DNA of 64,000 bases from Escherichia coli. Lineage in GTDB: Bacteria > Pseudomonadota > Gammaproteobacteria > Enterobacterales > Enterobacteriaceae. This document shows positions 39,648 to 40,507 of the stretch, piece by piece. Under the pieces are notes generated by a model that ran no database searches, had not been told where the DNA came from, and worked only from the letters and a program-made list of their open reading frames with translations. The position numbers were made by a program, and so were the translations under genes. Where the stretch lies: NCBI RefSeq assembly GCF_044647545.1, contig NZ_CP172818.1. One strand, given 5' to 3'. Numbering within the stretch: position 1 is the first letter of the stretch; each line of letters starts with the position of its first letter.

Positions 39648-39868
39648 CCCGCCACCTTTTTCTAACCTTTTGCCGCTATGATGCCAATCGTTTCTTGAGG
39701 TTATTATTCAGTTTTGCAAATTAGCGCAAAGAAATTCTGGAATCTTCCTTCCTGATTTTGCATTGCATTCTGCCGTTGCGGCGATTTAGTGCTATTTTCG
39801 AGCAAATTACACACGGAGGTAAACACTAATGTTTACTTTGTTGATATACTCAGCGGCAGGGAGGCGAT

Positions 39869-40045
39869 GTGAAACAAAGCGAGTTCAGACGTTGGCTCGA
39901 ATCTCAGGGCGTCGATGTAGCGAATGGCAGCAACCATTTAAAACTGAGGTTTCATGGGAGGCGCAGTGTCATGCCGCGTCACCCCTGCGATGAGATTAAA
40001 GAACCATTGCGTAAAGCAATCCTGAAACAACTCGGTTTGAGTTAA
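39869..40045 (+). CDS. hicA: Type II toxin HicA (mRNA interferase), 58 aa
   Basis: GTG start at 39869 behind a GGGAGG site; reads VKQSEFRRWLESQGVDVANGSNHLKLRFHG…; directly upstream of hicB. Confidence 0.8.
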   Translation: MKQSEFRRWLESQGVDVANGSNHLKLRFHGRRSVMPRHPCDEIKEPLRKAILKQLGLS

Positions 40046-40090
40046 TCGCCAATTAAAAAGGTTAATGACATGCGAGAGACAGTCGAAATT

Positions 40091-40507
40091 ATGCGTTATC
40101 CCGTCACTCTTACACCCGCGCCGGAAGGCGGTTATATGGTTTCTTTTGTGGATATCCCTGAAGCGTTGACCCAGGGCGAAACAGTTGCTGAAGCGATGGA
40201 AGCGGCAAAAGATGCTTTACTGACCGCATTTGATTTTTATTTTGAAGATAACGAGCTTATCCCGTTACCTTCGCCATTAAACAGTCACGATCACTTTATT
40301 GAAGTGCCTTTGAGCGTCGCCTCTAAAGTATTGCTGTTAAATGCTTTTTTACAGTCAGAAATCACTCAGCAAGAGTTAGCCAGGCGAATTGGCAAACCTA
40401 AACAGGAGATTACTCGCCTATTTAATTTGCACCATGCGACAAAAATCGACGCCGTCCAGCTCGCGGCTAAGGCGCTTGGCAAAGAGTTATCACTGGTGAT
40501 GGTTTAA
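40091..40507 (+). CDS. hicB: Type II antitoxin HicB
   Basis: 138 aa from MRYPVTLTPAPEGGYMVSF…; C-terminal DNA-binding region. Confidence 0.85.
   Translation: MRYPVTLTPAPEGGYMVSFVDIPEALTQGETVAEAMEAAKDALLTAFDFYFEDNELIPLPSPLNSHDHFIEVPLSVASKVLLLNAFLQSEITQQELARRIGKPKQEITRLFNLHHATKIDAVQLAAKALGKELSLVMV

Follow-up and report, generated by a model that had tools for sequence, protein, structure and literature searches.

The 64,000-nucleotide stretch of Escherichia coli DNA analysed here (the window) carries the known chromosomal hicAB type II toxin-antitoxin operon of E. coli, in which translation of the toxin HicA depends on the transcript that is made; this dependence is real and, going by secondary descriptions of the original work, has already been published as the outcome of a pair of promoters, P1 and P2. 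A Shine-Dalgarno (SD) match followed by an ATG upstream of hicA, together with the 54-codon frame that this ATG opens, is in our judgement probably an unselected by-product of operator and promoter sequence, and neither a gene nor a switch. Since the SD-ATG pair sits within operator/promoter sequence, upstream of a gene whose +2 frame is open, such an origin is likely.

The hicAB locus and its genes

The 1-kb region around hicAB is 100% identical to that of E. coli strain FDAARGOS_497, and the same region was found in 5415 of 5426 complete E. coli genomes. The genes are arranged in the order rlhA, yncJ (minus strand), hicA, hicB and ydcR (Table 1). From 39687 to 39939, that is from 182 nt upstream of the hicA GTG to codon 24 of hicA, the window equals K-12 MG1655 base for base (MG1655 coordinate = window coordinate + 1,469,417, which places 39829 at 1509246 and 39869 at 1509286). 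Since the control region is identical to that of MG1655, experiments carried out in K-12 are directly applicable here. When compared with the K-12 hicAB operon (yncN-ydcQ; Jorgensen et al. 2009; Turnbull & Gerdes 2017; Manav et al. 2019, PDB 6HPB/6HPC), the locus yncJ-hicA-hicB-ydcR is the same, and there is no difference in the HicA protein, in the palindrome, in either extended −10 element or in the GTG start; the differences, none of them substantial, comprise two synonymous hicA changes (39940 and 39946) and a few changes near yncJ.

Table 1. Features of the hicAB region, in window coordinates
Feature	Position	Strand	Basis or remark
yncJ (DUF2554), divergent neighbour bounding the hicAB control region	39417..39647	−	Pfam PF10829, E 2e-51; annotated yncJ
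Candidate P1 CRP-S site, TGGAA-TCTTCC-TTCCT	39738..39753	+	7/10 CRP-S motif positions; inferred
Candidate P1 extended −10, TGcTATTTT	39790..39798	+	Predicted start near 39805
SD-like GGAGGT	39815..39820	+	8 nt before ATG 39829; Escherichia only
Perfect inverted repeat GTAAACA-CTAA-TGTTTAC, probable hicO	39819..39836		7+7 nt, 100% complementary; contains ATG 39829
Out-of-frame upstream ORF, 54 codons	39829..39993	+	Probably not a gene; without Pfam match
P2 extended −10, TGaTATACT	39842..39850	+	Predicted start about 39857-39858, 1-2 bases before the hicA SD
hicA SD, GGGAGG	39859..39864	+	Four nt before GTG; invariant in sampled Escherichia, (A)GGAGG in other genera
hicA, GTG-initiated 58-aa mRNA interferase toxin	39869..40045	+	Pfam HicA_toxin; PDB 6hpb_A residues 1-58
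hicB, antitoxin/repressor, 138 aa	40091..40507	+	Pfam HicB_lk_antitox + HTH_3; K-12 and PGAP annotation

The naming of the two genes as hicA and hicB in a preliminary description of this DNA is borne out by the domain content of both proteins and by their matches to PDB 6hpb and 6u0i. HicA scores 30.9 bits against Pfam PF07927 HicA_toxin (gathering score 27; E 3e-7; residues 5-57) and aligns with PDB 6hpb_A over its full length, residues 1-58 (E 2e-36). Its residue 23 is a histidine (within NGSNHLKL), which is His23, named as the catalytic residue of E. coli HicA in PMC8138530. HicB combines PF15919 HicB_lk_antitox (32.8 bits) with PF01381 HTH_3 (31.4 bits) and matches PDB 6hpb_B and 6u0i_A; with a HicB-like fold at its N terminus, an HTH at its C terminus and its gene directly downstream of hicA, it is a HicB of the HTH type.

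In order to compare the locus across genera, a scan of species-representative genomes with HicB was used, which gave 13 usable loci from Escherichia (five lineages), Citrobacter, Superficieibacter, Pantoea, Serratia and Brenneria. The hicA start behind GGGAGG described earlier was confirmed, the GTG being the same in 13 of the 13 orthologous loci. The 45-nt gap between hicA and hicB likewise holds for the annotated hicB start at 40091, and the independent initiation of HicB proposed along with it agrees with the secondary literature, where P2 mRNA is reported to give HicB only.

The start at 40091 (MRYP..., 138 aa) is kept in all genera compared. An alternative in-frame ATG at 40070, with AAGG or AGAGG 8-9 nt upstream, would give a 145-aa protein (MRETVEI...) and a hicA-hicB gap of 24 nt, and is present only in Escherichia and Citrobacter. 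Both HicB forms have been crystallised (138 aa in PDB 6hpb_B, 145 aa in 6u0i_A), and the choice between 40091 and 40070 is ambiguous.

At the other end of the operon, a minimal start-stop ORF, ATG-TGA (39867-39872, gcgATGTGAaac), overlaps the hicA GTG in every Escherichia allele sampled and is missing from the other genera; its ATG being 2 nt from the SD, this mini-ORF may be inert. In Citrobacter sp. NCU1 (L008), an in-frame ATG 69 nt upstream of the hicA GTG extends the ORF by 23 codons without a stop. Given that a 1-nt indel disrupts this extension in the other Citrobacter locus (L006), it is probably fortuitous.

Promoters and operator upstream of hicA

According to secondary descriptions of Turnbull & Gerdes 2017, hicAB is controlled by two promoters. 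As given there, P1, the upstream one, has a CRP-S site and Sxy as its activator; HicB does not repress it, and its mRNA supports the synthesis of both HicA and HicB. P2 is described in the same sources as being repressed by HicB, derepressed when HicA is in excess, and giving a transcript which is truncated at the hicA ribosome-binding site (RBS) and makes HicB only, and the operator hicO as an inverted repeat in the P2 region.

A simple sigma-70 scan upstream of hicA returned no promoter because it requires a −35 element; both extended −10 elements and the CRP-S candidate were found by a custom motif scan, and the exact −10 elements and start sites of P1 and P2 are those that we infer from these motifs. 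The CRP-S candidate, scored against the E. coli motif TGCGA-N6-TTCCA (PMC6728893), is the sole upstream block shared with Citrobacter and is centred some 60 nt before the predicted P1 start. The putative P1 −10 element is conserved across Escherichia, including the divergent lineage L005, and Citrobacter carries TGaTATAGA at the same place; at the P2 −10 position, Citrobacter has TATAAT. The predicted P2 start agrees with the truncation at the hicA RBS reported in the descriptions of P2. Since ATG 39829 is located upstream of this predicted start, only P1 mRNA would be able to carry the upstream SD and ATG.

A further stretch, TTTTGCAAATTAGCGCAAAG (39712-39731), was considered as a CRP-S site and rejected for its wrong half-site spacing and a score below 7/10. 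A GCAAA-N5-GCAAA direct repeat that serves yncJ is a better reading of it. This repeat, GCAAA-TTAGC-GCAAA (39716-39730), is part of a segment with 100% conservation within Escherichia, L005 included. It resembles a CpxR box (GTAAA-N5-GTAAA) and may serve the divergent yncJ, a Cpx-regulated gene.

The P2 region has a single perfect inverted repeat, the palindrome at 39819-39836. In the form GTAAnCA-N4-TGnTTAC this palindrome is kept in 11-12 of the 13 orthologous loci, covering Escherichia, Citrobacter, Superficieibacter, Pantoea, Serratia and Brenneria (Brenneria roseae is without it), and it is the one conserved upstream element across these six genera; the Superficieibacter copy is a fully compensated variant, GTAATCA/TGATTAC. 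It is probably hicO, to which the HTH dimer of HicB would bind. ATG 39829 consists of the last spacer base, A, and the TG that opens the right half-site. Because the spacer is AT-rich, ending in A in 10 of the 11 palindrome-bearing loci, an ATG is usually found at this place. The upstream GGAGGT in turn shares its last two bases with the left arm, of which they are the first two, and the G preceding them is a commonly conserved flanking base. A consensus SD and an ATG can therefore arise from the palindromic operator of a repressor, so that such matches in a control region are not to be read as genes.

Put together, the reading that we favour is as follows. Transcription from P1, dependent on Sxy and CRP-S, would give a full-length mRNA from which HicA would be made from GTG 39869 and HicB translated as well. 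P2, with its −10 element TGaTATACT, would start at about 39857, atop the hicA SD, and P2 mRNA would therefore yield HicB alone. HicB seated on hicO would repress P2, and excess HicA would relieve this repression. The hicO sequence would supply the ATG incidentally, the +2 frame of hicA happening to be open.

The upstream ATG and its reading frame

The GGAGGT site and the ATG at 39829, opening an out-of-frame 54-codon frame over hicA, had been described with all coordinates correct. The frame is +2 relative to hicA, overlaps 125 of its 177 nt, and is not annotated in MG1655. The number of GGAGG-N4-9-ATG matches in the window is 10, as against 8.9 ± 3.1 in shuffled sequence. When hicA was recoded synonymously, the upstream frame stayed open for at least 54 codons in 7.5% of the trials (p about 0.07; median 28 codons). 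Both the motif count and the ORF length are thus within chance.

The 54 open codons with their consensus SD and ATG, and a few automatic gene calls in public assemblies, could suggest a functional small protein overlapping hicA, but the substitutions in the overlap point the other way. Among the Escherichia alleles, 21 such changes were counted, of which 13 are synonymous and 8 non-synonymous for hicA. In the upstream frame nearly all are non-synonymous (16, with 3 synonymous); of the remaining two, one puts an early stop into one lineage, and the other abolishes the stop in a second lineage. The wobble positions of hicA, which are the first codon positions of the upstream frame, change at a rate of 0.31 per codon inside the overlap versus 0.29 outside. 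Purifying selection and a conserved open frame, which would mark a small protein, were not found. In all genera outside Escherichia the +2 frame is closed after at most 23 codons (the closure at +29 is a TGA from CTT-GAA, which reads CTC-GAA in E. coli), and inside Escherichia the frame does not always end at the same point. No Pfam family matched the peptide and, in a database of 5.8 billion proteins, it has no relatives outside Escherichia. What this database does contain are 17 tiny clusters of near-identical, sporadic Escherichia gene calls, most of which are the upstream frame fused to the HicA C terminus in frameshifted hicA alleles, that is, artefacts. With an ORF length that chance accommodates and no annotation in MG1655, we regard a small protein as extremely improbable, and judged by the comparative evidence a functional peptide from this frame is effectively excluded.

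A different possibility is that the site acts through translation itself, with the peptide being irrelevant: ribosomes starting at AUG 39829 on P1 mRNA would cross the hicA SD and GUG out of frame, and could hamper HicA initiation through occlusion or favour it by opening local structure. On paper the upstream site is at least as good as that of hicA, with a computed anti-SD pairing of −10.8 versus −11.1 kcal/mol, a better spacing (8 nt versus 4 nt) and AUG versus GUG, and some initiation at AUG 39829 on the P1 transcript is therefore plausible. Such a leader ORF would be present only on P1 mRNA, the toxin-competent transcript, the site is found in most Escherichia, and complementarity over 7 nt (39836-39842 with 39873-39879) might connect the upstream region with codons 2-4 of hicA. 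However, the palindrome, extended by G-U and A-U pairs, forms a 10-bp RNA hairpin in the centroid structure (39816-39839, −8.4 kcal/mol), in which the upstream SD and the UG of the AUG are paired and hence buried. The computed opening energies are 7-10 kcal/mol for the upstream site versus 5-13 kcal/mol for hicA, and because these are similar, RNA structure does not discriminate between the two sites. The 5′ region folds no more stably than shuffled sequence (z −0.4 and −0.7), and an Rfam search gave no match. That P1 mRNA is reported in secondary descriptions to support HicA synthesis also weighs against interference by a leader ORF. In the ribosome profiling of Li et al. 2014, according to Deter et al. 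2017 (PMC5535158), hicAB drew fewer than 128 mapped reads and belongs to the low-confidence class.

In addition to translatability, we have also checked whether the SD and start codon are conserved among relatives with the same operon layout, as they should be for a leader ORF of consequence. In the 13-locus comparison GGAGG is restricted to Escherichia, where GGAGG and ATG are kept in 4 of the 5 species-level lineages sampled. At the position of ATG 39829, Citrobacter has ACG and the Escherichia lineage L005 has GTG, the outer half-site being kept in both; Citrobacter apparently shares the P1/P2 layout and yet has neither this ATG nor the SD. Within E. coli, the 80 nt from 39800 to 39879 are present in 4253 genomes and identical in 2962 of them, and GGAGG together with ATG is kept in about 70% of the E. 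coli genomes with this region. GGAGGT has become ATAGGT in 147 genomes (hicA is annotated as intact in 7 of the 7 inspected) and AGAGGT in 335, and altogether no fewer than 482 E. coli genomes have lost the upstream SD or carry a weaker form of it; GGATGT is found in VL7S7 and L005. The hicA SD and GTG, for their part, showed no variation across the sampled E. coli alleles. Conservation of the upstream SD and start thus fails in Citrobacter, in the ATAGGT and AGAGGT genomes and in L005, and the comparative data show no sign of selection maintaining the upstream SD, the ATG or the reading frame. Judging from the population data, whatever effect a leader ORF had would be dispensable. In view of this, control of HicA by ribosomes that start at AUG 39829 appears unlikely, though it is an explanation to be kept in mind, and a modest, dispensable effect of the upstream ORF on HicA translation from P1 mRNA is doubtful.

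These results divide the earlier proposal that toxin translation depends on the choice of transcript or of start. The part concerning the transcript stands, being covered by the P1/P2 pair as described in secondary sources; the part concerning the upstream ATG does not, since the published cause is the truncation of P2 mRNA at the hicA RBS, and since neither the upstream SD nor the ATG nor the frame is conserved.

One could also suppose that GGAGG is conserved at the DNA level and unrelated to translation, either as a flank of the HicB operator or as part of the initial transcribed region of P1. The overlap of the last two GGAGGT bases with the left arm of hicO fits this, as does the G before GTAA that is common across genera, and on the predicted P1 transcript GGAGG would occupy roughly +10 to +15. 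Its first three bases (GGA), however, vary within E. coli and between genera, and any constraint on them at the DNA level would therefore be weak. We consider this explanation very improbable.

Related toxin-antitoxin systems and the orthologous loci

The arrangement resembles that of the type I toxin-antitoxin system mok/hok, in that an upstream out-of-frame ORF with its own SD overlaps the start of the toxin gene and could control its translation. The mok frame is conserved and is required for the translation of hok, which is without an efficient SD of its own. By contrast, the SD that hicA has of its own is conserved, unlike the upstream SD, ATG and frame. A mok/hok-like layer in a type II system could be imagined in which remodelling in Escherichia set a consensus SD beside the ATG embedded in hicO, so that P1 mRNA alone would carry a translated leader ORF which damps or couples HicA synthesis, with the hicO hairpin as a gate; this we hold to be quite unlikely. 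Were the leader ORF translated, a reverse-order toxin-antitoxin module that is among the best studied would gain control at the level of translation, and the amount of free HicA on Sxy induction could be affected. Short of that, the finding amounts to a textbook toxin-antitoxin operon identified once more and adds little, transcript-dependent toxin translation being already explained by P1 and P2.

A closer likeness in layout is offered by toxTA of H. influenzae and by mqsRA and rnlAB of E. coli, where the toxin gene also comes first and a second promoter gives an antitoxin-only transcript. In these systems the second promoter lies inside the toxin gene, whereas that of hicAB lies just upstream of it and cuts off the toxin RBS.

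In Pantoea, Serratia, Superficieibacter and Brenneria salicis (L007, L009-L012), we have found two tandem operator palindromes some 70 nt before hicA (about 1205-1275 in each locus), with a TTGAC −35 element inside the first operator and TACTAT after the second. The ATG in these loci falls between −35 and −10, upstream of the likely start, and is without an SD. This layout implies a single autoregulated promoter whose mRNA would keep the hicA SD. Escherichia and Citrobacter have one operator and a −10 element 11 bp further downstream, so that the antitoxin-only P2 looks like a lineage-specific remodelling.

The HicA^T B system of IncI2 plasmids belongs to the hicAB family as well and has its toxin gene first, with an internal noncanonical terminator between hicA and hicB (PMC11878559). 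It differs from the chromosomal loci of E. coli and Citrobacter, which are without a spacer hairpin and whose control favours the antitoxin and not the toxin.

Orthologues outside Escherichia (L007, L009-L013) do contain a conserved GC-rich hairpin in the hicA-hicB spacer, AACCAGCCC-TNCG-GGGCTGGTT, with a variable loop (about 1450-1475 in each locus). It is present in Pantoea, Serratia, Brenneria and Superficieibacter, is not found in Escherichia or Citrobacter, and resembles the internal terminator of the IncI2 HicA^T B system (PMC11878559).

Finally, hicAB is decaying in E. coli. About 1160 of the 5415 genomes have a 445-bp deletion (39825-40269, L015) running from inside the left arm of hicO to the middle of hicB, which leaves hicB as a pseudogene. 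A 22-bp deletion allele (39986-40007, L016), also common, shifts the frame of hicA and fuses the upstream frame to the HicA C terminus. In addition, there is a stop at W9 in L005 and a frameshift in L002.
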